DNA from: Candidatus Omnitrophota bacterium
GTDB lineage: Bacteria > Omnitrophota > Omnitrophia > Omnitrophales > Aquincolibacteriaceae
DNA: 64,000 nucleotides
NCBI GenBank assembly: GCA_035352955.1
Contig: DAOPYQ010000010.1
Location: 3,145-67,144 of the forward strand
Direction of reading: 5' to 3'
In this document: positions 33,718 through 54,900 of the stretch, in pieces
Layout of the letters: every line of letters begins with the position of its first letter
Numbering within the stretch: position 1 is the stretch's first letter
Program-made: the position numbers and the translations under genes
Notes under the pieces: model-generated
Databases searched by the model: none
The model's input: only the letters and a program-made list of their open reading frames with translations
What the model was told of the DNA's origin: nothing

Positions 33718-34151
33718 AGCATTGAACGAAGTCTTTCTTGTCTCGGTTCTCCGGTAAGCAAGCCGGATTCTGAACCGGCGACATGTCTCATGTCCGGATT
33801 TCTCTGACGACCTCCCGCGCAGAACGATCGATCTCTACGGCTGGTTTCTGGAGGCAGCCCTTGTTTCGGCCGGCCAATCCCGTGTAATGCCGTCTTCCTG
33901 AAAAGCATTCCTCCCCAAAGGAAAAATTCGTATTTTCCTGTATTTGGACGACCTCTATGCAAAAGCGTATTTTATTTATCTGCTAAATCGATGCAACCTA
34001 TTGCAGCAAAATGAGTTACGATATTTTCCAAGAATTTGACGATTCGAGAAGCGTCGTGTATACTTCAGATAATTAGAAAACTTATAAAAAGGTATTACAT
34101 AGTAGGTCATTCCTGTAGGTCCCAGGTGCGCTCCTGGCTAAAAAAATAACT

Positions 34152-37100
34152 ATGAACAAACAATCCCGACCCTCGTGGATGTGTAGGGGAATTTCTTTTT
34201 TTGTGGCCGTCGTATTCTTGACGACCACGATCCTGTGGGATCCGTCCGCTGTGCTCGCGGCAGTAGGGGGAATGGCGCTGCGGGAGCAGGAACAATTTCG
34301 AAAAGATCTGCAAAGTTACCTCTATACGTTGCCGTCTGAGATCGGCACTTTACATGAAATAGTGGATGGCGGAGGGCGGAGGGCGGATGGAGCAAGCAGT
34401 GTTTCGCCAACCTCCAACCTCCAACCTCCATTCGAATTTGTTATTCATATCCAAGACGCTCACGCCAATCCCGAGGCTCAGCGGAATATCTATCGAACGC
34501 TGAAATTTCTTGCCGAAAAATATCCCGGTCTTTCCGTCGCTATCGAAGGCGCGGAGGGACCGCTTTACCCTGAGTATCTGGATCTTTTCCGGGAATTTCC
34601 GGCGGCGAATCAGGCCGTGATCGAAGACCTCCTTCAAAAAGGGGAATTGACCGGCGCGGAGCTTTTTGTATGGGACAATTACAGAGCAACGCGCAACGCG
34701 CAAGGCGCGACGGGAAAGACGAATGCGTTGAGCGTTGAGCGTGGTGCGTTGATCGCACCGAAGGTTCAGGGTGTTGAAAACACCGAACTCTACGCCTCCA
34801 ACCTCAGGGCCTACCGCGATCTGCTTTTTAAACGCGGCGATATTCAAAAACTCCTGATCCCCATTCGTGAGAGACTCGAAAAGGAAAGCTCGCGTGCGCT
34901 TAACCCCGGGCTTCGCGGGTTTCTGAAAGAGCGCGACCGCCGCAAAGAAGGCCGCTATGACGTGTCCGGTACGGTTTCGGACGCCAATCTCCAGGCCTAT
35001 GTTCGTACGCTTCGCAAGGAAATCTCAAAAACCCTTGCGATCGATCTGAATGATGCGATCGAGCAGCTGCGTTTCCCGAACCTGGTCCGTGTGGTTCTTC
35101 TTGAGAAGAACGGACAGGGATTCGACCGCGCGCGTGCCGCGGACGAATGGAAAAAACTGATCGAAGAGATCCGTCCGGCCGCTAAAACCGTCGCCGAGAA
35201 GCAGCTGGTCGAGGCTTTGTCGGTTTATGGAGCGGAAAAGGTGGGGCTGGAAAAAAACAGCGCAACGGAAAACTCTTCCGCGAAGGTTGGCCGTGGCATG
35301 TTGGGCGCGCCGGAAGCGCTTTATCCCCGCAAGCTCCTTGAACGCTTGTCTGTTTTCGCCCGGGGACACAAGATCGACCTGGCCGACCGCAAGGCGTTCC
35401 TCGAGAGCCTGAAGTTTTTGATCTTCCAATCCGAGATCGATGTGACGGGTCTTATGAGTGAAATGGATTCCCTGGAGTCGCAGCTCATCGCAAAGCTTTC
35501 GCGAACGGATGCGGAAAAAGAGTTCGTCCGGCAGTTAGAGAATTCCGGGCTTCTCGTTAAACTTCTTTCACTGGAACTTTCGCGTGCCGAGTACCGGAAG
35601 GCTCTTGAAGTCCGCGGAGATCTTGCGGTGTTGGTCAAAGGCAACAAGAATCTCCTGGCCGCGCTCGAAAAGGCCTTTTCCTTTTATGAAGGCACGCTCA
35701 AGCGTGACGGGGCCTTGGCGGAGAATACTCTTGCCCTTTCAAAACAGGATGGCGGAAGGCGGATGGCCGATGGAGCAAGCGGATTTTCGTCACCCTTCAT
35801 GCTCCATCCCTCATCCCGATTGGTGGTGCTGATCACCGGCGGCTTTCACTCCGAAGGCGTCCGCGAGGCCCTGGTCGAGCAAGGCGCCGGTTATGCGAGC
35901 CTGACACCGCGGATCTCGAAGACCGATCATGGCGAAATGTACCAGAGGGTCATGGCGGACGATAACGCGGACCTGAGCGCCTATTTCAAAGTGAAGAACC
36001 CGTTCCTCACGAAACAGGAAGCCCTTCTTTTCAAGGAAACCCTCGAAATTGCGGCTCCGGTCCTTTCTGGAACCTATCAGATCACAGGTGCCGACAAGGC
36101 TCGCCGGGTCCAGAACGCTTTTGCGGACAGTCCCGTTCTTTCCCGGGCGACCGCCGCGGAGAATTTGCAGGATCCTGCGGAGCTTCGTTTTTCTCCGAGA
36201 TCCGCCGGAGCCATGCTGCCCCAAAACGCCGCGATCCCGTCCGTTCCTGTGACCGCGGGCCAGGAATTTGCCGCCCATGTCGCGCGTGCCGGGTCCGTGG
36301 TTGTGTCGACTGTTCCCGCCGATGTTTCCTTTACCGGTCCTTCAGTGGTCACGGTTTCCGGGGCGCGTCAACTGTCCGGGACGTTCCCCGGATCGTCGAC
36401 GGCTACTACCCCAGTCGATTTCCGCGCGGAGAAACGGGAGAGTCCCCAGACCTCTTCGGTCGCTGAAGGCGTTGAATTTTCGGAGCTTCTTGCAGGGAAA
36501 GTGCTGTCCGAGGGGACGAAGAATCGTTGGCGGAGTTTGTTGGCATCGGATCCTGTTTTCCAGGAGTTTATCCGGCGGTACAGGGGGAGCCTTGAAATTT
36601 TGGTCCGATCGGGGCGCGGCGAGCAGGCGTTTGCCCGGGAGTTGCTCGAGAAGTTCCCGAAGACCGATTGGGGGGCGTCGGTTGCGGAAGGCATTGAGCT
36701 ATCAGCGTTGCTTGCGGGTGAGGCATTCTCCCCGGAGGCTAAAGATCGATGGAGAGCTTTGCTTGGATCGGATCCTGCATTCAAACAATTCATTTTAAAG
36801 TACCGGGATCGTCTTGAATTATTCGCCGGATCCCAAAGCCGTGGCGACCGTGAGTTTGCACGGGAGGTGCTGGGAAGGGTTTCCCGCGCTGAATTGCGTG
36901 CCATCGAGGAAACGAACGCAAAACTCGAAGCTTCGGATCGCGCGGAACGGCGGGGCGTTTCGTACGAAGCGGTATTCGGTGTAATGAACGCGGGGTTCCT
37001 CGACCGGGTGCGTTCCGGAAAAACCGTTTCGTCTGATGAACATATCTTGATGGATCTCCGTTCCAAAGCTTTAAGGGAACTCGGCGCCGCTTTTGACGAG

Positions 37101-40100
37101 GATAGCGCGGATGAGGCCGTCCGGAGGATCAGGGAAGAAGTGATCCCTTCGTTCCTTGTCGCCGCGGATGCCGGACAGCGCGAACTCCTGCGGGACCTGT
37201 TGCTGAAACAGGCGCGTCAATACCACGAGCTTGTGCGTGGTTTCGGGACGGTCGCCTTTGATAAAGACCGGGATACCCGGCAGACGCTTGGGGCCAAGGA
37301 AGACGTTCATGAGGATGTTCTCTACGCGAGCTTTCAGGCCATGGATATGCTGACCGTTTTGGGCGATGAGAAAGCTTTAACGGAACTCATCAATCTTTCC
37401 CGCGAAGGTCTCCAGGCCCACTCTCAAAGCCGCGGGCTTCAAAAACTTATCGACGGTGTGGACAAACTTGAAAAGGAACAACGTCAGGATGACGCTTGGA
37501 AAGCCCTCGTGGAACAGTCGAGCGTTTACGAAGCGGTCCGGCGCTGGACCGTCCAGCAATGCATGCTTTTGCAGAGCGTGAGCCGTATTGCCCGGCAACT
37601 ACCGCAGAGCGGTGCGCGAGACGCCGCGGTCCGGCTATTGGCGGATATTTTGCTGGATCATGACGCAACGGCGGAGGGATATTACTGGCTTCGCCAGCAG
37701 GCGGCTTACCGGCTCAGGGATTTCGACTCGGATGTCGCCGTGCAGGCGCTTGACCGGGAAGCTTCCAATAAAACGCGTCCGCCTGCGACGACGATCTTTA
37801 TCACACCCAATCTGGACGCCGCAAACGATGACACGATGAGTGTTCAGCTTCAGGCCGGGATGAGCCGGATGCATATTCACAGGACTCGCGCTTTTGTGTC
37901 GCTTCGCGATCACTCGGATGACTTCTTGAGTTCACCGGAGTTCGAATCTTCGCAGAACAGGTTCGCGCGGCTCGTCGGTATCCAGGACGCTCTGATCGAT
38001 CCGGTGATCAGCGAAGCGATCCGCATTAAAACGCTGGAGAGAATCGGAAAGGCCCAAGGCGATGCTTTCGCGCTGGCGGGGAATATCCTTCTCGACGCGC
38101 TGGAGGAAATGATGGCACAAAAGCCCGGCGAGATCTTTTCTTCGAAAGGACGTCAAGGCTTGTTGACCCCGGGTGTTAAAAAAGCCGCTCTTAAAGCTTT
38201 CATGAGAATCGCCGGAGCGGTCGGCAGCCGATTGGAAAATAATTCCAAGCTTTACGCCGGATTTCGATCGGCGATCGGAAGGGCGGCTGCGAACGGTAGC
38301 GGCATTGCCGAAGCTCTTCATCTGACGCATGTCGCTTTGGCGAATCTAGACCGGATCGCCCAACTTGCCAGTTTTGAAGAAGGGGCGACCCGTCTGGACC
38401 TTTCACGGAACATCATTATCGAATCGGGCGGCGGTGCAGCCGTGGCGATGGCGGGCGTGGTCCACCGGATGACGACTGACCCTGCGCTTGCGGTGATCAG
38501 CGGAACGGATAACGGAGGCGGAACGCTGCTCGTGCGGGGACGTAATGCCGCTCAATTCGGGGTGCCAACCACGGCGATGGGAGACACGACCCGGTTTGCG
38601 TGTGAAGCGGCCGTGATGGAAAGCGCTCCTGCGGCTTTGATTATCCGCGCGCTGATGTCCTACCGGTGCAGCAAAGGCGCAAAAAGTTTTGTGGATGAAC
38701 TGGGCCAGATCAAAGACGATCTTTTCAAAAAAGCGCGTCAAGCCAACGGGGAAGAGGCCTTCAAAAAGGTTTTTGACCGGGTGCTGGAGATCGCCAAGCG
38801 TGTGGATGCCACGGGACAGGCGGTTGAATTCAACAGTGTCCGGAACCTTGTGCATGACGGTCTTCAGCTCATGACAGAGGGGCAAGGCGAAGAATCGATG
38901 AACCTGGATGCCGTCTATGCCGGGTTCGGCTTGTTCCGGGACCTGGTCGGATCAAAGGGGTTTGCGGTGGTCGATACTCCTTATGGTAATGAAATGGTCG
39001 TCACGACGAATGACGGGCAGGAAAAAATAGGGCAGGATTTTTTCTCCCACACGCCTTCCGGCACCCGTTTCGGCCGCGAACGCCGCATCAGCCGGATGAA
39101 AGATGTCAGCAATTATTATCCCGATATTCCGCTGCACAGCCGCGTCAGTCCTACGATCAAAAATGCGGATCTCATTCTCTCCGGGCTTTCGAGCTGGGGG
39201 ACAAGCCTCGGGATCCTTTTCAAGAATCCCGGCATTGTCAGCGCGATGGAGGCCAATCATAAGGCGACAAAGATCCTTCTGGCGAATCCCGTCCGGGACG
39301 ATGAAACGCGCGGCATGATCTGGCGGGAAGCTGTCGATGATTTTATTCATCATATGGCCGGCGTCCCCGTGGAATCTTTGTGGAACCGGATCTTGACGAC
39401 CGCGAACACGGATCTGGATCTTCCGATCGATACGGCGATGCCTCAAATGGGAACGAAACGGGATGCCCATGACGGAAAAATGGGAGGGTATACGGGCGCC
39501 AACACGCCGACCAACGCGGATATCGAGGCATTGCAAAAACGCGGTATCCAGGTGAACGTTTCGCGCAACTGGACCGAAGTGAAAATGACGCCGCGCCGGA
39601 CCAATCCGGATCTTTTTAACGCGTCGATCCTTGCGGTCTCTGAAGAACTGGCGCAGGCCCTTTGGGAAATCATGAAGACAACCACGCAGAAAAAACTGAC
39701 GCCGCTTCCGATCTTCACGCTTATTGAGCGTCACGAAGAGCTCTCGGAGAAGCTGCAGCAGGCGGGTTTGACCCTCGAAATGCTCGGGCTTTCGGATGTT
39801 CACAAGCTTATTTTTCATCCGGGTCTTGTCAAAGAATTTACGGCTTGGCTGAATGAGGGAACGGTTCCGGCCTGGATCGCGGAAAAAGGACCCGAAGAAG
39901 GCTGGGTCGAATATACGCTTCGCCGAGCGATCGAAGAAACCACCGGGACGCGCATGGATCCCGGGGCCATTCGTCTGGACCGACCGCTCACGATACTGCA
40001 AAAGGGCGGCCGGACGGTTATGGTGGAGTTCCTTTCGAAAGAACGGACCGATCAGGTTTTTCATGCTAGTCGCGTTCCCATCGCAAGCGATCTTAATAAA

Positions 40101-46100: not shown

Positions 46101-49100
46101 CCGGAAAGCTCCTACTTTTTTTCCCCGATGTACGGCGAGCTGGTCAATGAGGAAGACGCGCTTCTGACGGATCTGGCGGCGTATAACCGGGACAGGCCGG
46201 AATCTCAAAATAAAGACGCGGACATTTGCGGGCAGAAGGCGAGTGATGATAATTTTCTTAATCCGGTGACCCAATGGGACCGTCAGGGGATCCCGATTTC
46301 CGTGAGCGTTCCCCCGGCCGATATCCCGCATGTGAAGCACGTTCTTCTCCGTCTTCAACAGGTTCCGGCGGAGCGCCTCGATCAGACCACCAAACTTCCG
46401 CTTTCAGCCAGGGATATTGAACTGCTGGATCTCCGGGTGTCCGAGCTGAACGCGTCTCTTTTGGGGGAATCCCGGAAATTCCTGAAAACGGCCTACGAAT
46501 GGCACGACCGGTATCGTGAGGCGGGGTTCTACAGGAATTTTTACCGTTCGGACCTGAACCCTGTGGAGGGGCTCGGGAGTGTTCGGGAATTCTATTATCT
46601 GAGAAAGCTTATCCGGTCGAGGATGAGTGATTCGAGGAAGGATGATCCCGCAGAGCCGGTTACGAGCAAAACCGTGGCGGCGATGGTCAGGGTTCTTTCC
46701 AAAAACGGATTTTTGCTGCCTTACGAACAGGAAGGATTGATCCGGGGGTTCGTGTTTCTGGACGCTGTCCGGCGGGCGTATGGCAGGCTGGGGTTGACGG
46801 GATCTATCGATCCTTCCAGGCTTGAAGAATTGATCGCTGTTTTTTCCGAAGAAGAACCTGCGCCCTGGTTGCCGCCGCTTCCTCCGGATGCCACTGCGGA
46901 GGACCGGGCCAAAAGGGCGAACGCGTTTTACAAGCAGTATTTTTCCCATGCAAATCTTGTCTTTAATACGATGATACGGTACGTCCACGAGGGTTTCATG
47001 GAATTATTTCCGCCCGCGTCGGAAAATGTGCAGGTGATCGGAACGTTGAAGAGCGCGAACGGGCGCGAGATCCTGCTTCGCAGAGCCGATCGTTCCGGAG
47101 TCATGTTTGAGCGGGACGAAGGGTTCGTTTATAAAACGGCGGCGGAACTTTATGTCGAGCCTCAGGATATGGCCGCGCTGGATCAACTGCTCAAAGAGGA
47201 CCCCTCGGCGGTCATCGAACTTTTCAAAATGGTCGTGGGGCCGCGCGGAAGGCTGCGGATCGGCTATGGGATCCAGCGGGCGATCGTCAAAGCGGTTGCG
47301 ACCATGCCCGAGCGCCAGGATCTTTCTCCGGAGATGAGGTCCAAACTTGACCGGGCCTTGAAGGAATTTTTCACGATGCCCGAGGATATTTCGTACGCGT
47401 TTTGGCGCATGCACCGGTTCGGTTTTTTGAGAAAGTGTTGTCCGGGGTACGATGCCATGCGGGCGGATTTCCTGACGGGGGAAAACCGTTTTTCAGTTCA
47501 TATGGAGACGTTCCAGGCGATCGAATTCATGGAAGGACTGCCCAGACGCGGCGAGTTCGCCCTCGCGCATGCCAGGGAGGTTTCATTGAAGATCCGAAAA
47601 GACCAGGGCGAACACGCTTCCGGAATCCTCCGCCTGGCCGTATTTTTGGACGGGATCATGCGGAGTGTTTATAAGACCGCGCCGATGTCTCGCGATGAAG
47701 TCGCCGCGTTCGTGAATAAGGAGCTTGAATCCCGGGGATGGTCTGGGGAGGACCGCGCGAAGATCTCCTGGCTTATTTACGAGAAAAGGATCCTTGCGGA
47801 CCTCGATCCGATGTCGGACCAGGAAGTGGCCGAGACGCTTGCGAAAGTTCTCTCCGGATGGAACCAGAAATCCGGGATGATCGATCTTTTGTACATGATG
47901 CTTTTGGCGACGCGGATCGGTTCTATGAGGCCCAGCAAAATATTGCTGGCATTGCGCCAGGGCCCGGAATCGGGGCTTGCGGGCTGGGAGGAATTCCACC
48001 GGGTCGGGACCGCAGTCCTTGATAGCGGAACCCAAAAAAGTCCGTTGATTGACCTTTACCGTAGAGCGGGCGAAGTCCGCCAGTTCATGCTTGCGGAGGG
48101 GGCGGTCGGGGAGCTTGCGGGGGAACTTGCCGCGAGCATCAGGGATCCCAAGGTTTTTCAGCGGTTGTTCGATGAAGCGAACGTTGTGAATGTTCCTTTG
48201 TCGGCGGCAGAAAAGGGTCAGATCCTGGCTTTTCTGAGCGACCCGGATTTCTTTAAGGTTCTTTTCCAGAAATATGTTGAACGCTTCGGATGGCGTTATA
48301 TTCGTGCGCTCGACCTGGAGGAACACACGCGGGACCGCAAAACGATCCTGAAACAGCTTCTTTTTCTTGCGGCGCTGGAATTTTTGGCCGGGAAGGGTAA
48401 GTCGGATGCGCTGACGATCGCTGAATTTCCTCTTCCTTTGAGCGAGAACCGGGCGCCTTACGAGATCCTGATCGGGGTTCCTGTGGCGGATTCCGAGGTT
48501 CTGTCCGCCGTTCACCTTACCTCCAGGGCGCTTTACCAACACGGGTTTGTGATCGAAGATATGTCGGCATCGGTCCTTGGCACAGGGTCGGGGGTCGTGC
48601 TCCGGTTCCTCGGGGTTTTTCCCGCGAAAATTACGGATTCCGCCTCCGAGTTGCAAAAAGTCCGTACCGATCTACAGAAGATCTTTGAACGGCAAAAATG
48701 GTCGGTTGTCCGTTTCCTGAGTGGTTCTGACGAAAAACGGATCGTCGGTCGCCGGTATCATGCCATGGATAATTTGTTCCGCGGTCCCCTCCGCGTCTGG
48801 CGACGGGGTGCCGTGGGAGGCGCTGCTTCGCGGGTTAAATTGACACCGCACCGGTTTCGCAACAACGTGCTGGTCCTCAATGCCACGACGGTGGACTATC
48901 CGGGGCTGATCGCTTTTGTAAGTGGCATGCTCGCAAGAAATTATAAGCTGAACGGGCGCGATTTCAGCATGACGGACCTGAGCGGCGGGGTGACGCGTAT
49001 CATGGCCTACATTGAACGAGAAACAACCTCCGAAGAGCCGGGTTTTCAGCAGCGGATCGAAAAAGAGATGAAGGAACGGCTCGAGTATCCGGCGGCCGAG

Positions 49101-52100
49101 ATGGATGGATCGAAAATAAAGAATCTGAGTGAGGCCGACCGAGCTGAGAAACGGGGAGAGAAAAAGGAAGCGGTTGTTCGCGGAACAACGAAGGCCGGCG
49201 CCTCGGAAAGAAAGAAAGCTTCCGCGGAGAAAATCCAGAAGCCCACGGTCGATATGAATTGGAAAAAAATAAAAACGGATCAGGAGAGAACGCTTAAAAA
49301 CAGCGGCGTGAAATTCTATCCCGATGTCAGGGACGGCTCCGGTGCGGGATTTGAAGTCGAAATGGGTTCGGCGCGGTGGCAATACTGGCTCGAGACCGGG
49401 AAAGATCCGGTGTCCGAAAAGTCGTTCGTTCGGGTGATCAACTGGTTTGTGTCGCACGGGCGAAGGAGGGTCTTTCCCGAGCAATCAAGTTCGGATCGTT
49501 CCCTCAGCTTTCGTCCTCTCGAGAGTGCGGAGGGTCCGGTTCGTGCGATTGTGTCGGTCGGAATAAATGAAAAAGAAGGTATTTCCGTGACAATAGCGGA
49601 TGTAAGTCCCGCGGGATTTACGTCTCCGGTGGTCCGTTGGGCCGACAAGCCCGGAACTTCATCGGAAGAGATGCTTTTTGAGACTTCCAAGGGTTCTCCG
49701 ACATCATCTAAGGGTTCGGAAGGTTCTTCCGGGCTTCCCCAGCAATTGGGAGCTCCTGACGCGTTTCTTCCCGCGCACGCGGCTTCGCCATCGAGCGCAG
49801 AGCCGAGTTCGGGGGAGCTTTTGGCCAAAGATGATTCCAGCCTCGGAATGGCCGTCAGGGTTCCGAAAGACAGGCCTTTTTTAGTTGATGTCGGTCATCG
49901 AATCGTGACCCTTAATCCCGCGTTTGACAAGACTCGCTACCGGTTCCTGTCCGTTCCGGCCACGCGGTCTGAGGACGGAACGGTGATGACCGTTTACGAC
50001 CGGCTTGTGTGGGCCATGACGCAGGTTCTGGAAAACTGGGCTAAACTTCCCGAGGAAGTGAAATCCGGCGAGGAAAAACTGGTCTCCAGGCCGTCGGAGG
50101 CGGGCGTGATGACGCAGGCAAAAGGCGTGAAAATGACGGAGGACCCGGAATTGTTTGTGGCACGGAAAACAGCCGAACTTGGGAAGCTCTGGAAGATCCT
50201 CGGGGATTCCGGGCCTGATTTTGCGTGGGTGTTGGATGAAGATGCGCTGAAGGATTTTATGGCTGAAGCGGCTTATCGTAATCACCGGGGAGTTCGGGAA
50301 TTTATAAAAAAATATTTCGAGATGGTCCTTTTTTACGCGGAGGCCGGTCCGGAATTGCGCGGTGAGATGATGGCCGGTTTACGGGACAACCTGCCGGAAA
50401 AATTCCGGGGGAGGGTGTTTTCGTATACCGCGTTCGTAAAGGCCGCGCTTTTAAAAAACAGGCCCTTTTCCAAGACGGTCTTTCTCCGTGAACGTCCACC
50501 TTCTATTGTTGCATGGAAGGGAACCAAGGACGCGTCGTGGCAAAATTCAATGGCTTTCGAAAATTCGGTTTACCGTTTTGAACAAGGAGAAGATTGGTAC
50601 ATCGCGGCGTTTGCGGAATGGGCAGGGCGCACGTTCCTTTTCTACAAAACAACGCGTCTCCGTGACTGGCAGCATGCGGATTTTGTCCGTGAACTCGGAA
50701 GCCGTTACGAGCCCATGGCGGATGTCCCGGGGGGGATGACCCTTTTGTCGCCGCAACTTTCGGCCAAGATCGAAGCGCTTGTCGCCGGCACGCCCGGCGT
50801 GGTGAAAACGGTCGACAAGAGCGTTTTCGGGAATGTTGCCCGGGAAAAAGGGCTTGTTGGTTTTACGGATAATTCGGTGCTTGAAAAAGTCCTTGGCTCA
50901 AAAAAGCTGGAGGCCCTGAAACACGAGCTTGAAAACCTTTCGCTTGCGGACCGTCCGTATTTTGTCATGGTCTGGAAGCGGCCGCTTTTGGGAGCGTGGA
51001 TCGAAAAGCGGTTTGGCCGGTGGCTCGACAAGTGGCTGGGGAACAGTCTGTTGATTTGGTATAAAAAGTCCGCGAGCGCCCAGATCCGTCAGACGGTTGA
51101 ACGGATGGTTGCGATGCTGAAAGAGCGGGACCGTGTCTCAAAAGAGCGCGGGGTAAGCGCTGTCGCGTCCGGTCCCGATCTTGGGCAAACGGCTCCGAAG
51201 GACCGCGCAGAAAAGCGTGTAGGGGCGGTCACGAGGCCTCTTGAAATGTCCGCCGCAGAGGCGGCCCGGGTCCGCAAGATCTTCATTCTCGGCCACCAAG
51301 GGCAGGGTAACACGCAGCTGAGCTATGACGTTAAACACTTTTCGGTGCTGGTCCCGCTTCTTTTGACGCGGTTTCCGAACGCGCAGGTGGATATGGCGGT
51401 GGATTATGCCAACCTTTTTGCGGCGCGGCGTTTTGCCGACCGGGTCTCGATCGTGAGGGACCCCGCTTATTCCGAAAGGACAGAGCCACAGGAACCGGTC
51501 CGGGTGATCTATGTGCCTACGGGGGCGATCGCGGATGCCGTGGATCGCGGGAATTCCGCGGCCCTTGTCGATTGGCTCGCGGCCGGGGGTTATGATTACG
51601 TTCTGGATTTTGCGCAGTGCGGGGTGGGGCTTGAAGAATCCCTTTTTGAACTTTCTCAAAGACCGGCGCCCGCGGACGGTAGCGCCCGGCCGAAGCTTCC
51701 GGTGGCATTTCTCAATATGAGCCCGCTTCCCGGGACGAATCCTTCGATGACGGATGTGCCGGATCCCGTTTTTAGGGTCGATGTGAACCTTTCCGAGGGG
51801 GAGCATCTGTCCCGGGTCCGGGGGACTGAGGACCTTAACCGGACAACCCCGTTGGGCCGTGAGGCGCGGTATTGGGAGATGATCTTCCGGGTCTACCGGG
51901 AGATGGGGCTGTTGAGAGAAAGAATGGATCTTCAGCTGCTCGATCTCGGGAACTGGGGGCTGGATGATCTGGAGAAGGATTGGGTCAAGCCATCGCTGGA
52001 AGGAATGCTTCGTAGGAGTGGTCTTTCGGAATCGGAAGCCCGGGACGTTCTCGCCTCGGGGCGGAAATTCATTTATGTGAACGTTTTTTCGCACAGTTAT

Positions 52101-53945
52101 CCCGAGCTCGGAAGTCCGGAGATCTGGGAGCCGCTCCTCTCATGGGTTTTACGGAATACGGACAGTGTTCTTTTCTTTTCTCTGGGTGGCCGGAAGGATG
52201 AGGGCGATATCCGGCAACTCCGTGGGTTGACGCAGAAGCTTGCGGCCGAGAATCCGGAAGCGGCCAAGAGGATCGTGCTGGCGCCCGAGAATCTTTCGGT
52301 AACGCGTGTGATTCAATTGATGCGGGTTATGGACCTTGCGATGACGCCGGAACGTTCCGGTTTTTCGGACATTGCGACGGTGCTGAATGTTCCGCAGTTC
52401 GTGGTCGCTAAAGCAAACGATTCTCCCTACCTCACTTATCGGACGAATTCTGTGATCGCGGAACAGGGCGGTTTGCAAAAAACGGGAGAGATCGCGCAAA
52501 GTCTCTCCGCCCGGAAAGACCCGGTCCGGCTCCAGATCCTTGAAAACCGGACCAACAAAATGCCGAAGCATATTCTCCTGGTGGATGACGAACGCACGCT
52601 CCGTTACGTCACAGCGATGTTTTTGCGTGCGAAATACAGGGGAACGAAGGTCACCGAAGCGGGCGACGGGGAAGAGGCCCTGGCAATCCTCCGGGGGGAT
52701 CCTACGATCGATTTTCTTTTGACCGACCTGAAAATGCCGCGTGTCGACGGGATAGCCTTGTCGCGGCAGGCGAGTGATCTCCGGCCGGGGATGCCGATCC
52801 TTGTAATGTCGGCTTATCTGGGGACGGAGGATTCGTGGGCGAGGGAGCAGATTTCGGCGTTCCAGGTTTCCGGGATCCCGATTGCTTCGATCTTGAAGCC
52901 GTTTAAGGGCGAGGAGTTCGAGTCGGCGATCATTGACGTTCGTGCGGTTTCGGAAAATCAAAAATTGAAGGCACAAATCCCCGTTACGCCGGAAGAAGGG
53001 CTCCGGAAAGAGGGACGTGCGGAGCTGCGGTTGCAGGACCTGGACGGTTCGACGCCGGTGGCGAAGAGAATCCTCGGCAGAACGTTCCGGCCGGGGATCC
53101 TGGGTGTTGTGGACCGTTGGGTGCCCCAGGAATTTTTCCCGCAGATTTTTTCGGCTCGGGTTGTGACGGACGGCATGATGCATGCTCCGGGCGTGGCCTA
53201 TTACATGGCGGGCGGGGTCAATGAGGCAAACGTCGGAAAAGCGAATCTCTGGATCGCCGGGCAGTTGATCAGCGAAGAGCTTGCCGTCGCGCCGGGGATT
53301 TCGGACGCGCGGCTTGAAAAATTGCTGACGGTATTAAAAAGCGCTTTGCCGGCCGGCATTCAGCTGCTTTCGCTCGGGGAGCGGGAGGGACCTGAGGTTC
53401 ACGTGAATCTTTCCAATCTTACCGGAACGGACTGGACGGCGCTTTTAAGCGAAAAGAACTGGGTTCCGCTGGTTCCGGATTTTGGGGTCATGTTGGGTGC
53501 TTTGGCGGCCGTTCATGGAAAACTTCTGCTTAACGTGACCGCGGACGAACGGACGGCGCAGGTGATCGAACAAAAATTGCGCGGGGTGGCTGCGAAAAGC
53601 GGGATCTCGCTGGGGCGGAAAGAGCTTCGCTTGATCGCGACGGGCCGTCAGGATCCTTTCGCGTCGTTGTCCGGTGTGACGAAAGCGGATGCCCTGGTGG
53701 CGCAGAACCGGGGGATCCTGGAGCAGGTGGCCTATCGCAAGGGATTGGGATCGCGGTGGGTGACCGATGACGCCGGGGATATGAAGAGTCTTGTGGCCGG
53801 TATTACGACCATCCTCTACGCGGCGATGGACGAACGGGTCGACCGTTTCGGGATCCACCGTCCGTCGGAATATAACCACGGCGCCATGCTGAACGCCGTT
53901 CTCGACGCGATCAAGGGCTACGCCCAGCTCCTCATCGCGGCGTGA
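34152..53945 (+). CDS. Giant multidomain protein (6597 aa) with a signal/TM anchor at the N-terminus. The domains I could read are: a ChaN/TIKI-like region (~34.4-35.9 kb), internal tandem repeats (36.46-36.90 kb), a YvcK/CofD-like domain (~38.38-39.33 kb), a HAD-phosphatase DxDGT motif (~40.70 kb), a PTS-EI-like PEP-utilising phosphohistidine plus TIM module (~44.78-46.10 kb), a GlnD-like HD plus 2x ACT (~47.3-49.0 kb), a GT9-like glycosyltransferase (~51.27-52.41 kb) and a REC receiver (~52.57-52.94 kb).
   Basis: Single uninterrupted frame of 19.8 kb. Motifs: IQDAHANPEAQ / VVLITGGFHSEG; ESGGGAAV...GTDNGGGT...ADLILSGLSSWGTS; MTDMDGTM; GIFATQGDKGTHWVQLL + PLFPMVES + FGVMVETRS + FNFGTNDLTQ; ACT-like NNVLVLNATTVDYPGLIAFVSGMLARNYKLNGRDFSMTD; GT9-like RKIFILGHQGQGNTQLSYDVKHFSVLVPLL...YDYVLDF; HILLVDDERTLRYV...DFLLTDLKMPRVDG. 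Confidence 0.85.
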   Translation: MNKQSRPSWMCRGISFFVAVVFLTTTILWDPSAVLAAVGGMALREQEQFRKDLQSYLYTLPSEIGTLHEIVDGGGRRADGASSVSPTSNLQPPFEFVIHIQDAHANPEAQRNIYRTLKFLAEKYPGLSVAIEGAEGPLYPEYLDLFREFPAANQAVIEDLLQKGELTGAELFVWDNYRATRNAQGATGKTNALSVERGALIAPKVQGVENTELYASNLRAYRDLLFKRGDIQKLLIPIRERLEKESSRALNPGLRGFLKERDRRKEGRYDVSGTVSDANLQAYVRTLRKEISKTLAIDLNDAIEQLRFPNLVRVVLLEKNGQGFDRARAADEWKKLIEEIRPAAKTVAEKQLVEALSVYGAEKVGLEKNSATENSSAKVGRGMLGAPEALYPRKLLERLSVFARGHKIDLADRKAFLESLKFLIFQSEIDVTGLMSEMDSLESQLIAKLSRTDAEKEFVRQLENSGLLVKLLSLELSRAEYRKALEVRGDLAVLVKGNKNLLAALEKAFSFYEGTLKRDGALAENTLALSKQDGGRRMADGASGFSSPFMLHPSSRLVVLITGGFHSEGVREALVEQGAGYASLTPRISKTDHGEMYQRVMADDNADLSAYFKVKNPFLTKQEALLFKETLEIAAPVLSGTYQITGADKARRVQNAFADSPVLSRATAAENLQDPAELRFSPRSAGAMLPQNAAIPSVPVTAGQEFAAHVARAGSVVVSTVPADVSFTGPSVVTVSGARQLSGTFPGSSTATTPVDFRAEKRESPQTSSVAEGVEFSELLAGKVLSEGTKNRWRSLLASDPVFQEFIRRYRGSLEILVRSGRGEQAFARELLEKFPKTDWGASVAEGIELSALLAGEAFSPEAKDRWRALLGSDPAFKQFILKYRDRLELFAGSQSRGDREFAREVLGRVSRAELRAIEETNAKLEASDRAERRGVSYEAVFGVMNAGFLDRVRSGKTVSSDEHILMDLRSKALRELGAAFDEDSADEAVRRIREEVIPSFLVAADAGQRELLRDLLLKQARQYHELVRGFGTVAFDKDRDTRQTLGAKEDVHEDVLYASFQAMDMLTVLGDEKALTELINLSREGLQAHSQSRGLQKLIDGVDKLEKEQRQDDAWKALVEQSSVYEAVRRWTVQQCMLLQSVSRIARQLPQSGARDAAVRLLADILLDHDATAEGYYWLRQQAAYRLRDFDSDVAVQALDREASNKTRPPATTIFITPNLDAANDDTMSVQLQAGMSRMHIHRTRAFVSLRDHSDDFLSSPEFESSQNRFARLVGIQDALIDPVISEAIRIKTLERIGKAQGDAFALAGNILLDALEEMMAQKPGEIFSSKGRQGLLTPGVKKAALKAFMRIAGAVGSRLENNSKLYAGFRSAIGRAAANGSGIAEALHLTHVALANLDRIAQLASFEEGATRLDLSRNIIIESGGGAAVAMAGVVHRMTTDPALAVISGTDNGGGTLLVRGRNAAQFGVPTTAMGDTTRFACEAAVMESAPAALIIRALMSYRCSKGAKSFVDELGQIKDDLFKKARQANGEEAFKKVFDRVLEIAKRVDATGQAVEFNSVRNLVHDGLQLMTEGQGEESMNLDAVYAGFGLFRDLVGSKGFAVVDTPYGNEMVVTTNDGQEKIGQDFFSHTPSGTRFGRERRISRMKDVSNYYPDIPLHSRVSPTIKNADLILSGLSSWGTSLGILFKNPGIVSAMEANHKATKILLANPVRDDETRGMIWREAVDDFIHHMAGVPVESLWNRILTTANTDLDLPIDTAMPQMGTKRDAHDGKMGGYTGANTPTNADIEALQKRGIQVNVSRNWTEVKMTPRRTNPDLFNASILAVSEELAQALWEIMKTTTQKKLTPLPIFTLIERHEELSEKLQQAGLTLEMLGLSDVHKLIFHPGLVKEFTAWLNEGTVPAWIAEKGPEEGWVEYTLRRAIEETTGTRMDPGAIRLDRPLTILQKGGRTVMVEFLSKERTDQVFHASRVPIASDLNKRREEATHRLGKVDFTDYVTKKTVTILFPNELLTVGRNPKDRLDRLKAVLQFQIEKMDWILQDKDAVRLSESNPEAFVGGLAAAGFRIAESLTDEIRILNLEQAIAPTGVGEAQDIFRGHLLSVVEQGLGQAVAVRKEAAYREHLEFLLHLESLAEKDKAADGKDETVAGRNAFLKLIGELSVAIPYQRFLRIAQAQGKVPVTMTDMDGTMSAAGTELTTPMAHAHHDAATSETSAIHYITGQDFRGPKKQIIEPMKQIERILSWLSIRTGVALSREGMHQIFQNMSFGACAGSALFIYKKGVGYIKVNQRSIPKKQVDLIVLASRLSMPKVPYEIEGYQIELREPQMVQRPDGSWKALGFASVAILPSGRFDSKRNWDLPPEAKLRKKQAAIMEALLSDPGEMLRIVKQLLGKGKNADWEFTVRGKDGAERRIKVLPEQKEAVLELFKKNKDKWENPGQIAPIIISAQAGGSTTTDVSGRSKAEGVDFALSDPDFNEIPAIQGRDVTVAAIGDEMQQFESEDPDRPGEKIQSRGNDFAMAEDPVAEIGLLVHTGSWGGTLPNTATAYDPRGIEPFITVDLVTYSGRAVARGENVKRVLEMEKEEPDRFGDISKYLVTSLEDLNESQASELLIARGAGRLEIRAKTGVSSLEASDRAERRTAEDLARAVIDLKMTDPADVEVLRYIQGRLLEKAEKGLKGISGLLSPQQSFNASAGIVADMIGAGTEASDRPLFERMAAFILRPTLDGKFSPRDDRLFEAVRTLFSFTEGVAPSKLRFSGAVRAIGDLLQPGVSLTGGKLRVHENIRQQQAEHFLRLVKTLEGRNERADPSIEQMVINYLLYTGMSRLFREHLVLHTREYSGAAVQKAFLILDAVDKATGRRGELRADAARGFELRYDKASGNYILVKNKREIERISFYRGPIAVAGDLVRALQSEGISVVRDPGDVSRIIFGAGPEAVGESVSVSNFQKLQEWVACSPALAAGAAAAKEPQHPINFFRDGLFVQHIFPEEAAKSGRGVRAERRDAVVEPGPAAEVEGQEEIVMKAKALPISSVSGTVLFMPRTKLSLYWYVDAENLPAALATTLRFTEEMSEDLGVMFPKSTGAYRPFVDLEYYKQKASTLLKEVLELPLPDQGQTGKGLQKVRELFKYRHFLPFVRIGVSEREVLIAKFEKLVAEEADRRDSEIVNSLIQLQGLSYEHWLELKLVLATVQREALQGQALLENMPTLNTATADQWGSPEMVRELGILLSNLGKSHPARSHPALVRFLEDYHDADIASSGAEEGRDLEELIVALKKNGKPEATLLHPLAAISNFLVDEEPQPEPGELGMWRNGFFMDHVRDRIALLSHRARVQQQKEQGENGDELLEKEWALALRAIQGIERQFMAEAQSLESRLRGYHEREKKVAEYKARRANPVGLNAEDLRSLDRKIKDGEQFLEEFKDLSSSLARSQSNMVNLKSNFLNDLNDPEFKIRAFAAVKVSGESLIEYLYREKSGDMRMVTGLALRTLLEELPEASRVMKRGMADLVSNYHVGLRRILETFDDEEKPAAEKSQGSERVWGDGKGPVVVLIRGFVVDSQVENIRKILGKRLVGIFATQGDKGTHWVQLLLSRSNRPGLAFLSEGKYKDLLDNIREGDTVALKLQEGSEEAEVIHHPSAKTLAEIHAAQREEALLRGGEKILEAARTRVPVRVTLDTQNPDALKAEGSAGAGLVRGDVMNHAMRRRYSAVLEAIGRNKFDFEGWFRLWGTVDFRGMKSGADLDHFQQDLTRVLDVDALMEVQGFLAELVAEDLALLRNARGRVPFRTIDLVNDDSKGQEMVNLILEMQRRYPHSNLVRDLNKGFFSFHFYENSQAGLFVLIKQLTAEFIAAHQLAEEGGSPQLAPLFPMVESAAQIDFIQREVLPVATRLAVWNIASQKMKEQNLSNGERFELLRKIEESMREQVLGKTRFGVMVETRSLLRDPEERKKIIAHPLVSFFNFGTNDLTQQAASDAIGHNVRRDDPESSYFFSPMYGELVNEEDALLTDLAAYNRDRPESQNKDADICGQKASDDNFLNPVTQWDRQGIPISVSVPPADIPHVKHVLLRLQQVPAERLDQTTKLPLSARDIELLDLRVSELNASLLGESRKFLKTAYEWHDRYREAGFYRNFYRSDLNPVEGLGSVREFYYLRKLIRSRMSDSRKDDPAEPVTSKTVAAMVRVLSKNGFLLPYEQEGLIRGFVFLDAVRRAYGRLGLTGSIDPSRLEELIAVFSEEEPAPWLPPLPPDATAEDRAKRANAFYKQYFSHANLVFNTMIRYVHEGFMELFPPASENVQVIGTLKSANGREILLRRADRSGVMFERDEGFVYKTAAELYVEPQDMAALDQLLKEDPSAVIELFKMVVGPRGRLRIGYGIQRAIVKAVATMPERQDLSPEMRSKLDRALKEFFTMPEDISYAFWRMHRFGFLRKCCPGYDAMRADFLTGENRFSVHMETFQAIEFMEGLPRRGEFALAHAREVSLKIRKDQGEHASGILRLAVFLDGIMRSVYKTAPMSRDEVAAFVNKELESRGWSGEDRAKISWLIYEKRILADLDPMSDQEVAETLAKVLSGWNQKSGMIDLLYMMLLATRIGSMRPSKILLALRQGPESGLAGWEEFHRVGTAVLDSGTQKSPLIDLYRRAGEVRQFMLAEGAVGELAGELAASIRDPKVFQRLFDEANVVNVPLSAAEKGQILAFLSDPDFFKVLFQKYVERFGWRYIRALDLEEHTRDRKTILKQLLFLAALEFLAGKGKSDALTIAEFPLPLSENRAPYEILIGVPVADSEVLSAVHLTSRALYQHGFVIEDMSASVLGTGSGVVLRFLGVFPAKITDSASELQKVRTDLQKIFERQKWSVVRFLSGSDEKRIVGRRYHAMDNLFRGPLRVWRRGAVGGAASRVKLTPHRFRNNVLVLNATTVDYPGLIAFVSGMLARNYKLNGRDFSMTDLSGGVTRIMAYIERETTSEEPGFQQRIEKEMKERLEYPAAEMDGSKIKNLSEADRAEKRGEKKEAVVRGTTKAGASERKKASAEKIQKPTVDMNWKKIKTDQERTLKNSGVKFYPDVRDGSGAGFEVEMGSARWQYWLETGKDPVSEKSFVRVINWFVSHGRRRVFPEQSSSDRSLSFRPLESAEGPVRAIVSVGINEKEGISVTIADVSPAGFTSPVVRWADKPGTSSEEMLFETSKGSPTSSKGSEGSSGLPQQLGAPDAFLPAHAASPSSAEPSSGELLAKDDSSLGMAVRVPKDRPFLVDVGHRIVTLNPAFDKTRYRFLSVPATRSEDGTVMTVYDRLVWAMTQVLENWAKLPEEVKSGEEKLVSRPSEAGVMTQAKGVKMTEDPELFVARKTAELGKLWKILGDSGPDFAWVLDEDALKDFMAEAAYRNHRGVREFIKKYFEMVLFYAEAGPELRGEMMAGLRDNLPEKFRGRVFSYTAFVKAALLKNRPFSKTVFLRERPPSIVAWKGTKDASWQNSMAFENSVYRFEQGEDWYIAAFAEWAGRTFLFYKTTRLRDWQHADFVRELGSRYEPMADVPGGMTLLSPQLSAKIEALVAGTPGVVKTVDKSVFGNVAREKGLVGFTDNSVLEKVLGSKKLEALKHELENLSLADRPYFVMVWKRPLLGAWIEKRFGRWLDKWLGNSLLIWYKKSASAQIRQTVERMVAMLKERDRVSKERGVSAVASGPDLGQTAPKDRAEKRVGAVTRPLEMSAAEAARVRKIFILGHQGQGNTQLSYDVKHFSVLVPLLLTRFPNAQVDMAVDYANLFAARRFADRVSIVRDPAYSERTEPQEPVRVIYVPTGAIADAVDRGNSAALVDWLAAGGYDYVLDFAQCGVGLEESLFELSQRPAPADGSARPKLPVAFLNMSPLPGTNPSMTDVPDPVFRVDVNLSEGEHLSRVRGTEDLNRTTPLGREARYWEMIFRVYREMGLLRERMDLQLLDLGNWGLDDLEKDWVKPSLEGMLRRSGLSESEARDVLASGRKFIYVNVFSHSYPELGSPEIWEPLLSWVLRNTDSVLFFSLGGRKDEGDIRQLRGLTQKLAAENPEAAKRIVLAPENLSVTRVIQLMRVMDLAMTPERSGFSDIATVLNVPQFVVAKANDSPYLTYRTNSVIAEQGGLQKTGEIAQSLSARKDPVRLQILENRTNKMPKHILLVDDERTLRYVTAMFLRAKYRGTKVTEAGDGEEALAILRGDPTIDFLLTDLKMPRVDGIALSRQASDLRPGMPILVMSAYLGTEDSWAREQISAFQVSGIPIASILKPFKGEEFESAIIDVRAVSENQKLKAQIPVTPEEGLRKEGRAELRLQDLDGSTPVAKRILGRTFRPGILGVVDRWVPQEFFPQIFSARVVTDGMMHAPGVAYYMAGGVNEANVGKANLWIAGQLISEELAVAPGISDARLEKLLTVLKSALPAGIQLLSLGEREGPEVHVNLSNLTGTDWTALLSEKNWVPLVPDFGVMLGALAAVHGKLLLNVTADERTAQVIEQKLRGVAAKSGISLGRKELRLIATGRQDPFASLSGVTKADALVAQNRGILEQVAYRKGLGSRWVTDDAGDMKSLVAGITTILYAAMDERVDRFGIHRPSEYNHGAMLNAVLDAIKGYAQLLIAA
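36458..36900 (+). repeat. Intragenic tandem duplication of two ~219-nt (73-aa) units inside the giant ORF.
   Basis: VAEGVEFSELLAGKVLSEGTKNRWRSLLASDPVFQEFIRRYRGSLEIL... is followed immediately by VAEGIELSALLAGEAFSPEAKDRWRALLGSDPAFKQFILKYRDRLELF... Confidence 0.7.
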
Positions 53946-54013: not shown

Positions 54014-54091
54014 GTCCCCATCGTCTAGGTCGGCCTAGGACACTAGATTTTCATTCTAGTAACAGGGGTTCGAATCCCCTTGGGGACGCCA
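54014..54091 (+). tRNA. tRNA-Glu (anticodon UUC).
   Basis: Cloverleaf folds by hand: acceptor GTCCCCA/TGGGGAC, anticodon stem CTAGA/TCTAG with loop TTTTCAT (anticodon TTC, A37), T-arm GGGGTTCGAATCCCC, discriminator G, encoded CCA. Near-identical to canonical bacterial tRNA-Glu. Confidence 0.9.
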
Positions 54092-54092
54092 A

Positions 54093-54135
54093 TTATCGCA
54101 GGTGGCTTTTGCCGCCTGCGGTAATTGCTTTTATG
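54093..54135 (+). terminator. Hairpin (CGCAGGTGGC-TTTT-GCCGCCTGCG) followed by a T-rich tract immediately 3' of the tRNA.
   Basis: Inverted repeat with one mismatch, read directly. Downstream TTTTATGG. Confidence 0.4.
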
Positions 54136-54138
54136 GTT

Positions 54139-54305
54139 GGGGATTTGAAGGGAGTCCCGCTTTGAAATATGACTGACGTCATATTTTAGGGGCGGGTGGC
54201 CGACCCGGAACGAAGTGAAGGGCGCCAAATCCCTCCCAACGCTGATCGCCTTGGGACGTTAAACAAATCGAAACTTGTGGTTTCGATTTAACGTTGGGGA
54301 CGCCA
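54139..54305 (+). repeat. Copy A of a ~170-nt repeat element. It begins GGGGATTTGAAG, contains a 17-bp hairpin (CGTTAAACAAATCGAAAC-TTGTG-GTTTCGATTTAACG) and ends TTGGGGACGCCA, identical to the tRNA-Glu 3' end.
   Basis: Aligned by eye with copy B at 63662..63838. Shared blocks: GTGGCCGACC, GAAGGCGCC, CTCCCAA, TTGGGACGTTAAA.AAATCGAAACTTGTGG.TTCGATTTAACGTT.GGG. Confidence 0.6.
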
Positions 54306-54425
54306 TTCATTTCTATCTCTGGCCGACAGAGATAGTCCCAATACCTATCAATTTTAACGAAGTTGAAATTGGGGTAATCCTTGCCGACCATTTGAGAAAT
54401 CAAATATCAGGCAAGGATAGATAAA

Positions 54426-54470
54426 ACGGCCTTGGTTCGATAAACGAGCCAAGGCCGTCTTTATGTCTGC
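54426..54470 (+). terminator. Strong rho-independent-type hairpin (ACGGCCTTGG ... CCAAGGCCGT, 10-bp perfect stem) followed by CTTTATG.
   Basis: Perfect inverted repeat read directly. Confidence 0.45.
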
Positions 54471-54900
54471 ACGTTCTCGCGACTTACGCCAAGTCTAAAA
54501 TCCGAGCTATTCCGCAGATCCGCTGGTTTCAAAACCACAAACCAGTAGCAAACTACTTTGAGCCAATAATTCGCGATCTATCTCTAAATAGGACATAAAA
54601 GTGGTCAAGCTAGTTTTGCGTTCAATCATTGATTCATTAGCAATCCGTATGGATCTGAAACTGCAATGTTGGCTTGATTGACGACTGCAGACGAGGGTAT
54701 CTCTAGCTTTGGCAGTGCGTTAAACGGTGGAGATCAGCTGGGGGCAGGCTGATAGTTGCTTATCCCAGTCCATTTCGATCGATATTGCTTTTTGAATGTC
54801 TCTTTTCTAACCAATAACGTCATTAGGTGCGCTTTTCTTTCTATCTGGCTTTCTCATTCATAATTGACGTGATAGAGAAAGGTTGCTATGATTCCGCACC

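Follow-up and report, generated by a model that had tools for sequence, protein, structure and literature searches.

Whether the giant proteins of the Omnitrophota remain one chain or are cut up, and why cytoplasmic-type enzymes should stand behind export signals in them, is a recognized puzzle, which is raised anew by a 64,000-nucleotide (nt) stretch of Candidatus Omnitrophota bacterium DNA (contig DAOPYQ010000010.1; hereafter the window, with intervals written with two dots lying on its forward [+] strand). A single open reading frame (ORF) of 6597 amino acids (aa; GenBank HNX69265.1) runs there from an ATG to a stop codon, with exact boundaries at 34152..53945. Our analysis revealed that its product is a modular, envelope-targeted giant belonging to a ~20-member family of paralogs and orthologs. 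With confidence that we would call evenly balanced, we read it as a regulatory phosphorelay similar to that of the nitrogen-type phosphotransferase system (PTS-Ntr), fused to sugar/glycan enzymes within an envelope-targeted modular giant. The protein is a tractable, mid-sized member of the Omnitrophota giants, and its family exhibits a clear conserved module order.

The original prediction of one uninterrupted 6597-aa frame was confirmed, and all the motifs quoted with it were found in the order given. At the base composition of the ORF itself, 6597 codons would be free of stops by chance with a probability of ~1e-119, and the GC (guanine plus cytosine) content by codon position was ~0.62/0.41/0.63 in all 900-nt tiles of the ORF, matching that of the neighboring AcrB, ABC, and OEP genes. 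The same protein was recovered in three database records, one with a single mismatch over 6580 aa (P0005) and two identical (P0044 and P0045). HNX69265.1 is deposited as "response regulator [Candidatus Omnitrophota bacterium]" with 6580 aa and one mismatch to the window protein, and the further records comprise a 6588-aa entry found on three contigs and a 6557-aa GEM entry. The three records are collinear with the window ORF, that mismatch aside, with the choice of start codon as the sole difference, and the gene was called whole each time (6557-6588 aa), contrary to the expectation that gene callers might fragment or mis-strand it. A JGI metagenome contig and NCBI contig CAYPJP010000013.1 (GCA_964411105.1) were also matched by the neighboring OEP protein, and the contig occurs in anaerobic-digester samples (JGI 3300009692). 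An artefactual origin of the long ORF, by mis-assembly, as a multi-gene chimera or as a non-coding high-GC open frame, could be argued from its unusual length alone. High-GC DNA yields spurious long ORFs in other frames, and many were indeed present on the opposite strand, as predicted, but the longest in the other frames or on the opposite strand reaches 468 aa, as expected for a high-GC by-product. Against such an origin stand the recurrence of the same sequence, or of one differing by one residue, in records from several samples, the improbability of the frame together with its uniform codon-position signal, and full-length-type homologs that preserve the module order. Mis-assembly is ruled out by the uniform codon-position GC and the collinear records, and the artefact reading as a whole is effectively excluded: the giant ORF is a genuine single gene of Candidatus Omnitrophota bacterium.

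Word-indexed homolog searches with aa 2575-4700 and aa 5002-6135 produced no matches, whereas an exhaustive HMMER search with aa 3500-4699 matched 39 proteins, ~20 of them 2.5-7.8 kaa (thousand aa) long. The apparent 'orphan' character of the C-terminal 4000 aa is therefore an artefact of search sensitivity. All named members of this giant family are Candidatus Omnitrophota. Alignment of the family with the window protein by BLAST exposed a common module order, in which a signal and an N-domain are followed by an Enzyme I (EI)/GlnD-like/ACT block, a GT9-like module joined to a receiver (REC) domain, and a C-domain. Identity to the window protein was 40-52% in the N-domain (in ~15 family members), 22-37% in the EI/GlnD-like/ACT block, and 29-45% in the GT9-like module with REC. 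Among ten family members inspected with Pfam, REC was detected in eight, PEP-utilizers_C in seven, and PTS-HPr in four, with ACT, HATPase_c, PPDK_N, and GT9 in one each. The search for homologous giant genes in relatives, put forward with the original prediction as a check, returned these ~20 giants with their common module order, and the accompanying claim that no described protein shows this combination did not stand, the protein itself being in GenBank and having ~20 homologous giants.

The predicted Enzyme I-like swivel and phosphoenolpyruvate (PEP) barrel were corroborated both by profile matches and at the level of individual residues. An EI-type phosphohistidine (swivel) domain (44790..45221) aligned through the family profile to EI residues 155-302, with its catalytic His3585 at the EI active-site His, and was followed by a PEP-binding TIM barrel (45222..46376) that PF02896 matched with 31.8 bits (gathering score, 22.8). 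When a 12-sequence family profile was searched against PDB, Enzyme I was retrieved with an E of 2e-26, PEP synthase with 2e-16, and pyruvate phosphate dikinase (PPDK) with 6e-11, and the Enzyme I match spans both the swivel and the PEP-binding domain. H3585 of the swivel and R3695, R3786, D3789, K3796, E3936, N3964, D3965, and C4026 of the barrel were invariant in all 12 sequences. Right after the EI/ACT block, HPr domains bearing the signature G-[I/L]-H-x-R-P-A were found in five paralogs (P0007, P0012, P0013, P0017, and P0023). In P0018, an HPr-like segment (GLHAEPTA, aa ~2500-2600) is located upstream rather than downstream of the EI-like module, which indicates that HPr placement varies within the family. 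The swivel of the window protein is preceded by a divergent region of ~540 aa (aa 3007-3546; 43170..44789) that had no Pfam or NCBIfam match and whose 7-sequence profile retrieved nothing from PDB; neither an ATP-grasp domain nor the HPr-binding subdomain of EI (EI-N) was supported for it by the latter search. Outside the giant gene, a single PTS-type component was noticed in the window, a helix-turn-helix (HTH)-fused EIIA-2 (PtsN-like) gene at 9962-10645, adjoining an Mrp/complex-I-like membrane module.

The block after the barrel had been described as GlnD-like, with an HD-like region followed by two ACT domains, and structure prediction supports this order of folds. It comprises a catalytically degenerate nucleotidyltransferase (NTase) and HD-like helical region resembling GlnD, GlnE, and CCA enzymes (aa 4080-4750; 46389..48401) and two ACT-like domains (aa 4755-4992; 48414..49127). 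The AlphaFold model of aa 4080-5010, built from a 12-sequence alignment, reached a predicted local distance difference test (pLDDT) score of 82.2 and a predicted template modeling (pTM) score of 0.83. Foldseek matched this model to class-II CCA/poly(A) polymerase (E 2e-4) and to the ACT-like regulatory domain of IlvA (probability 0.98), and the modeled succession of an NTase-like, an HD-like, and two ACT-like domains is the domain order of GlnD. At the site where HD enzymes carry LFHDIGK and the HD dyad, the window protein aligns with LLDGI. The GlnD-like block is probably a pseudo-enzyme serving as a sensor or scaffold.

Toward the C-terminus, the GT9-like glycosyltransferase domain (aa 5690-6135; 51219..52556) was recognized via orthologous segments, five of nine of which (33-50% identical) matched PF01075 with a best E of 1.5e-6. 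The GT9-like fold that had been predicted is thereby supported through orthologs and not by the window sequence. A PDB profile search with this domain retrieved WaaC only, with an E of ~0.1, over the C-terminal GT9 signature, and single-sequence AlphaFold of aa 5686-6597 gave no usable model (pLDDT 36.8). The adjoining REC domain (aa 6137-6260; 52560..52931) was matched by PF00072 with 53 bits (gathering score, 30.2) and by PDB receivers down to an E of 3e-10; receivers were also all that single-sequence phmmer of the window protein retrieved from PDB. Its active site is intact, with the acidic pocket (D6145 and D6146), the phospho-Asp (D6192), the Ser (S6220), and the Lys (K6249) all found. 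The prediction that the protein ends with a GT9-like fold and a REC receiver was right about the receiver and wrong about its being last, given that a family-defining domain of ~300 aa follows (aa 6294-6597; 53031..53942), which is always located at the extreme C-terminus. The profile of this C-domain had no credible PDB match, with a dubious GntR-like hit at E 0.009. The domain finishes in ...AA or ...SA in the family, and every C-terminus of P0007-P0025, P0035, and the window protein (aa 6590-6597) conforms to ...A-I-Q-x-x-x-x-I/L-x-x-A/S-A. In its -AA end, the C-terminus is reminiscent of tags for degradation or recognition.

In the N-terminal half, a cassette of CofD/YvcK-like and HAD-like domains was delimited at aa 935-2637 (36954..42062). 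Its CofD/YvcK-like domain (aa ~1421-1800; 38412..39551) exhibits the motifs SGGG, DNGGG, and GLSSWGTS and was matched by PF01933 with 27.5 bits (E 2e-6), while TIGR04357 aligned nearly in full length (positions 4-302 of 368). PF01933 (CofD) also matched four of five homologs of the domain, and SGGG, DNGG, and an S-W-x-T-S block were invariant in the five. The YvcK/CofD assignment made from the sequence alone thus gained support, and on these matches we accept the region as a putative, divergent CofD-fold domain. The HAD-like domain (aa ~2180-2560; 40689..41831) had no Pfam match; the DxDGT motif reported for it, DMDGT at aa 2188-2192 (HAD motif I), was invariant among the homologs in alignment A1, and the acidic residues of HAD motif IV were found as GD (aa 2495-2496) and ND (aa 2518-2519). 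The CofD-HAD block (aa 933-2614) does not occur in the EI-family paralogs; it was found in ten other loci, seven of them from Omnitrophota-named metagenome-assembled genomes (MAGs), one Planctomycetales-named, and two Endomicrobia-type, and in four of the ten it lies within ORFs running off both ends of 16-25-kb loci. In one Omnitrophota MAG (L006, 3004-14974), a split counterpart of the fused window arrangement was found, with an N-domain protein of 1493 aa, a protein of 606 aa, and the 1771-aa CofD-HAD cassette each encoded by its own ORF, one next to the other. In L003, the cassette is directly followed by a REC domain, with HATPase_c further on. The cassette of the window protein is flanked by two copies of a perfect 29-nt direct repeat encoding LEASDRAERR, the left at 36924..36952 (junction aa 930-934) and the right at 42048..42076 (junction aa 2638-2642). 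These copies are 5124 nt apart, i.e., 1708 codons, and recombination between them would remove the cassette in frame.

At the N-terminus, a Kyte-Doolittle scan supported the predicted signal or membrane anchor, identifying aa 1-40 (34152..34271) as a putative Sec-type signal peptide or signal anchor. The hydrophobic stretch at aa ~10-38, preceded by positive charges, is the sole hydrophobic segment of the whole protein, and the region is kept across the family as ...RGISLFVAxAFxVTTLIWDPSxALAA, a Sec-like n/h/c layout ending in ALA-A. The family-defining N-domain that follows (aa 41-757; 34272..36422) carries invariant QDxH, EG, E, and GGxH residues. It had been called ChaN/TIKI-like, a description that found no support: Pfam and NCBIfam gave no match to ChaN, TIKI, or TraB in the window protein and Pfam none in five homologous N-domains, and the family profile of the domain had no ChaN, TraB, or TIKI match in PDB. 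Behind it, the tandem repeat announced as 2 × 73 aa proved real and was measured as two units of ~74 aa (aa 769-915; 36456..36896) with 49% identity (E 4e-23).

These modules are separated by a short motif. RAE[K/R/L]R occurs in eight copies in the window protein against 0.08 expected, and the corresponding family motif, R-[S/A]-E-[LVIMKR]-R, in 154 copies against 3.7 expected, 20 of them in P0012 alone. Besides the two copies within the 29-nt repeats, the window protein bears RAEKR at aa 758-762 (36423..36437), where the N-domain homology of the paralogs stops; the junction-type RAELR at aa 912-916 (36885..36899), where the second tandem-repeat unit ends; RAERR at aa 3002-3006 (43155..43169); RAEKR at aa 4997-5001 (49140..49154), just after the equivalent of which HPr starts in five paralogs; RAEKR at aa 5685-5689 (51204..51218), before the GT9-like module; and RAELR at aa 6289-6293 (53016..53030), the E and final R of which were invariant in 12 family members. 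The flanks of the motif are of low complexity, and in the BLAST comparison of the family with the window protein its copies were located at the ends of homology blocks, with a motif no more than 15 aa away from 17% of the internal alignment ends, compared with 4.4% of random positions. The junctions that precede the GT9-like module and the C-domain were positionally conserved, and the motif was confined to the giant gene in both loci examined. The eight copies differ in their codons except for the two identical 29-nt copies, which, that pair apart, argues for a constraint on the peptide and not on the DNA and rules out a DNA-level repeat. A motif general to all Omnitrophota giants was likewise ruled out, given that L003, L004, L007, and L008 have 0-1 copies. 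In L003 and L004, whose cassette-bearing giant ORFs are open at both locus ends, the pentapeptide (R)SGSPV was found 3-4 times instead, and this may be a different, lineage-specific junction. Literature searches on the junction motif, on polyprotein organization, and on PTS in Omnitrophota returned nothing relevant, and the pentapeptide is not mentioned in two preprints on Omnitrophota giants. To our knowledge, it is unlike any processing site.

Together, these modules suggest how the protein could work. In the direction of phosphotransfer that we infer, PEP would phosphorylate His3585 of the EI-type module, and the GlnD-like/ACT region would sense a small metabolite and gate this step. An HPr-type carrier, present as a fused domain in five paralogs and required to act in trans for the window protein, would next receive the phosphoryl group and hand it on, possibly to the receiver Asp6192. 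By this relay, the attached GT9-like, CofD/YvcK-like, and HAD-like enzymes, presumably acting on sugar nucleotides or glycans, would be controlled at the envelope in a chain that may stay intact. A PEP-driven phosphorelay with sugar chemistry had already been proposed from the sequence; that part is reasonable and gains weight from the HPr domains fused in five paralogs, whereas the description of the machine as self-contained fails, the window protein having no HPr.

Several observations weigh against this reading. HPr was found in the window protein neither by a local hidden Markov model built from the family HPr domains nor, as the signature G-x-H-x-R-P, in the six-frame translation of the window. 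The pre-swivel region lacks a recognizable HPr-binding subdomain of EI by its 7-sequence profile against PDB, and the TIGR01417 equivalog reached 15 bits (E 0.006) on the EI-like module, short of its cut-off of 341.7 bits. The ACT assignment in the window protein comes from a single predicted structure, and no invariant acidic or His residues were observed in the NTase/HD region of the 12-sequence alignment; with the catalytic residues of both NTase and HD unconserved, we can only guess at a 'sensor' role. Among the sugar-related modules, the window GT9-like segment itself had no Pfam match, the PF01933 score of the CofD-like domain falls below the gathering score of 30, its TIGR04357 score of 27 bits compares with a cut-off of 340, and the HAD-like region aligned to phosphomannomutase 2 as a weak profile match (E 0.21) over 50 residues. 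Topology adds a further difficulty. The sole hydrophobic segment is N-terminal and signal-like, and by the positive-inside rule the 6500-aa body is predicted outside the cytoplasm; such an exported body would be hard to reconcile with PEP chemistry, as PEP and nucleotide sugars are not expected there.

That paradox would be resolved if the protein were an effector, secreted or injected like the 'Archaeovorin' giants and rewiring the sugar/nitrogen metabolism of a host or prey, whose cell would supply PEP and nucleotide sugars. The conserved Sec-type N-terminus without any other transmembrane segment and the description of Omnitrophota as host-dependent or predatory fit this idea, which we nevertheless consider unlikely: Pfam and NCBIfam found no glycoside hydrolase, peptidase, dockerin, C39, or SecA-like domain, the flanks contain efflux pumps and a tRNA and no type II/IV secretion or pilus genes, and the set of EI, HPr, REC, and ACT is typical of intracellular regulation. 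Still more improbable, in our judgment, is a metabolic enzyme of the PEP synthase/PPDK type, interconverting pyruvate and PEP, a function already suggested for 'PPDK domains' of Archaeovorins, so as to supply or consume PEP for the attached sugar enzymes, for example in a CofD-type phospho-transfer from a PEP-derived donor. PEP synthase and PPDK were also significant in the family profile search against PDB, the swivel His lies 400-580 aa past the preceding junction, a spacing nearer to that of PEP synthase and PPDK than to that of EI, and PPDK_N was matched in one of ten family members, with PPDK-type domains reported in Omnitrophota giants. Enzyme I, however, has an E ten orders of magnitude better than any other match, neither ATP-grasp nor PPDK_N (PF01326) was detected in the window protein or in the 7-sequence pre-swivel profile, and the HPr fused in five paralogs points to protein phosphotransfer.

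Our main alternative on maturation can coexist with the phosphorelay reading: the chain may be a polyprotein, in effect an operon within one frame, that a dedicated protease cuts at R-[S/A]-E-hydrophobic-R junctions into about eight independent proteins, the protease possibly being the N-domain, with its invariant His and Glu, or the conserved C-domain. We regard this as a possibility worth keeping, short of a preferred one. Its appeal lies in a motif that is ~40-100 times over-represented, placed in low-complexity flanks at homology-block boundaries, conserved in position ahead of the GT9 module and of the C-domain, and, in two loci, absent outside the giant gene; in the occurrence of the N-domain protein and the CofD-HAD cassette as separate adjacent ORFs in L006; and in the proposal, on other grounds, of post-translational cleavage of Omnitrophota giants in the literature. 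It is countered by the absence of a protease domain detectable with Pfam or NCBIfam in the window protein, by an N-domain without detectable relation to TIKI/TraB proteases, by the cassette-bearing giants L003, L004, L007, and L008, which lack the motif, and by the fact that a conserved linker is equally explicable as a docking, flexibility, or recombination element. The cassette between the two identical 29-nt junction copies suggests a role in in-frame exchange. We therefore put forward only tentatively, and with somewhat low confidence, that R-[S/A]-E-hydrophobic-R is a junction code marking sites of proteolytic processing and/or of in-frame cassette exchange between giant genes. Processing at these sites would make the gene a bacterial polyprotein that holds an entire regulatory and enzymatic pathway in a single frame.

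Two further modules of the protein received no assignment. The first (aa 2643-3001; 42078..43154) is common in part to P0015 (37% identity over 250 aa) and had no match in family and profile searches (Pfam, NCBIfam, and single-sequence phmmer against PDB). The second (aa 5002-5684; 49155..51203) is partly of low complexity, largely unique to the window protein, and without a Pfam or NCBIfam match. Within the N-domain, two in-frame imperfect palindromes of 78 nt were observed, the first, encoding DGGGRRADGAS..., at 34364..34441 and the second, 77% identical to it, at 35747..35824. The fold of copy 1 is a long hairpin (-38.2 kcal/mol, z -3.65), and the two His-motif strands of the N-domain each have one of the copies immediately upstream. 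The position of copy 1 is a gap in four of four aligned homologs, and that of copy 2 a gap in two and a shorter unrelated stretch in the other two (L011 and L012). The pair is like in-frame palindromic mini-insertions such as the Rickettsia palindromic elements (RPEs).

With respect to the genomic neighborhood, a promoter-like site, TTGACG-17-TATACT (34036..34064), which is a consensus match only, lies in a gap of 434 nt preceding the ORF and suggests that the giant gene may be transcribed apart from the upstream efflux operon. Three tripartite efflux systems were found in the 64 kb (685-6610, 27148-33717, and 55769-61057), two of the resistance-nodulation-division (RND) type and one composed of HlyD/ABC-2/OEP; the second stops 434 nt upstream of the giant gene, and no evidence was found of its exporting the giant protein. 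A tRNA-Glu is located at 54014-54091, 69 nt past the stop codon. From there to the end of the window (54014-64000), GC falls from ~0.57 to 0.42-0.45 over an OEP/HlyD/AcrB efflux operon, a P-II gene, and a cation diffusion facilitator (CDF) transporter, and this segment could be a tRNA-flanked island. The high GC by which the gene was said to differ from its flanks accordingly holds downstream only, after the tRNA-Glu; the 8 kb upstream have equal GC.

Giant proteins with mixed domains have been described from this phylum as 'multi-enzyme metabolic cluster' proteins (class 1; Nielsen & Lui 2026 preprint) and as 'Archaeovorins' (West-Roberts et al. 2023), so that a long multi-enzyme ORF is unsurprising here in itself. 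PPDK-type, HAD, receiver, and HATPase_c domains are reported to be frequent in Omnitrophota giants, 8.6-13% of those of at least 10 kaa are predicted to have a signal peptide only, and post-translational cleavage has been proposed for them. The window protein likewise combines many unrelated enzyme and signaling domains in one polypeptide, its family overlaps in repertoire (PEP/pyruvate-utilizing, HAD, receiver, HATPase_c, and glycosyltransferase domains), and signal-peptide/membrane targeting and mostly unique sequences under a conserved architecture are shared. It differs in its length of 6.6 kaa, under the 10- and 30-kaa cut-offs of the catalogs, and in its one N-terminal hydrophobic segment against tens of transmembrane helices. 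Pfam and NCBIfam detected no C39/S8 peptidase or SecA-like domain, which together with a length of at least 30 kaa count among the Archaeovorin hallmarks, and no glycoside hydrolase or dockerin domain; type II secretion system/type IV pilus (T2SS/T4P) and PilZ genes, as they adjoin Archaeovorins, were not found among the neighbors of the giant gene. Given its size, its one hydrophobic segment, the lack of C39, S8, and SecA-like domains, and neighbors without a secretion system, the window protein is not an Archaeovorin. Neither paper mentions the EI-HPr-REC logic, the junction pentapeptide, or the N- and C-domains. New, as far as checked, are the defined architecture of the family, including N- and C-domains specific to it; the coupling of an EI/HPr/REC logic with a degenerate sensor of the GlnD-like type; and the junction pentapeptide with a cassette flanked by identical junction copies. 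The module order holds a complete Enzyme I/HPr/receiver logic, which suggests a concrete biochemical function. The interest of the protein lies mainly in the testable junction hypothesis, which makes the precise prediction of neo-termini or recombination breakpoints at RSE(V/M/L/I)R: were the motif a processing site, a polyprotein-style gene organization in bacteria would be established, and if it is not, the protein is an ordinary, though elaborate, member of the described class.

Compared with other known systems, the unrelated modules separated by a short conserved motif recall MARTX toxins and viral polyproteins by analogy, with the difference that no processing protease domain was identified here for the putative cleavage. 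The GT9-like domain resembles the GT9 heptosyltransferases (WaaC/WaaF) in its C-terminal signature region, which aligns to WaaC, and departs from them in being fused straight to a receiver. The CofD-like domain shares with YvcK/GlmR-CofD proteins (PF01933) a near-full model match and three glycine-rich motifs, whereas it has GLSSWGTS where that family has GPGSLYTS and is located inside a 1700-aa cassette with large flanks of unassigned fold. YvcK/GlmR binds UDP-GlcNAc and, in Bacillus, is encoded in the same operon as the HPr-like Crh, which provides a precedent for an association of YvcK with the PTS. GlnD exhibits NTase-like, HD-like, and two ACT-like domains in the same order, and a weak sequence signal was seen around MHRFGFL...PGY...SVHMETF of the window protein; the window block keeps neither the G[GS]...DxD motif of the GlnD NTase nor its HD dyad, and it scored 13 bits against a cut-off of 519. 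From the EI of the PTS, the window module differs in its ~540-aa pre-swivel region, whose profile did not match the HPr-binding subdomain in PDB, in a ~100-aa insertion in the TIM barrel, in the absence of any EIIA/B/C domain detectable with Pfam or NCBIfam in the protein, and in being embedded in a signal-peptide-bearing giant. EI-Ntr (PtsP) carries an N-terminal GAF sensor, and multiphosphoryl transfer proteins (MTPs) are fusions of EI, HPr, and EIIA. The window module shares with these enzymes the phosphohistidine swivel and a PEP barrel with every catalytic residue; its fusion to a putative small-molecule sensor region would be analogous to that of EI-Ntr, with the sensor C-terminal and GlnD-like/ACT instead of an N-terminal GAF, and the HPr fused in its paralogs is a feature in common with the MTPs.

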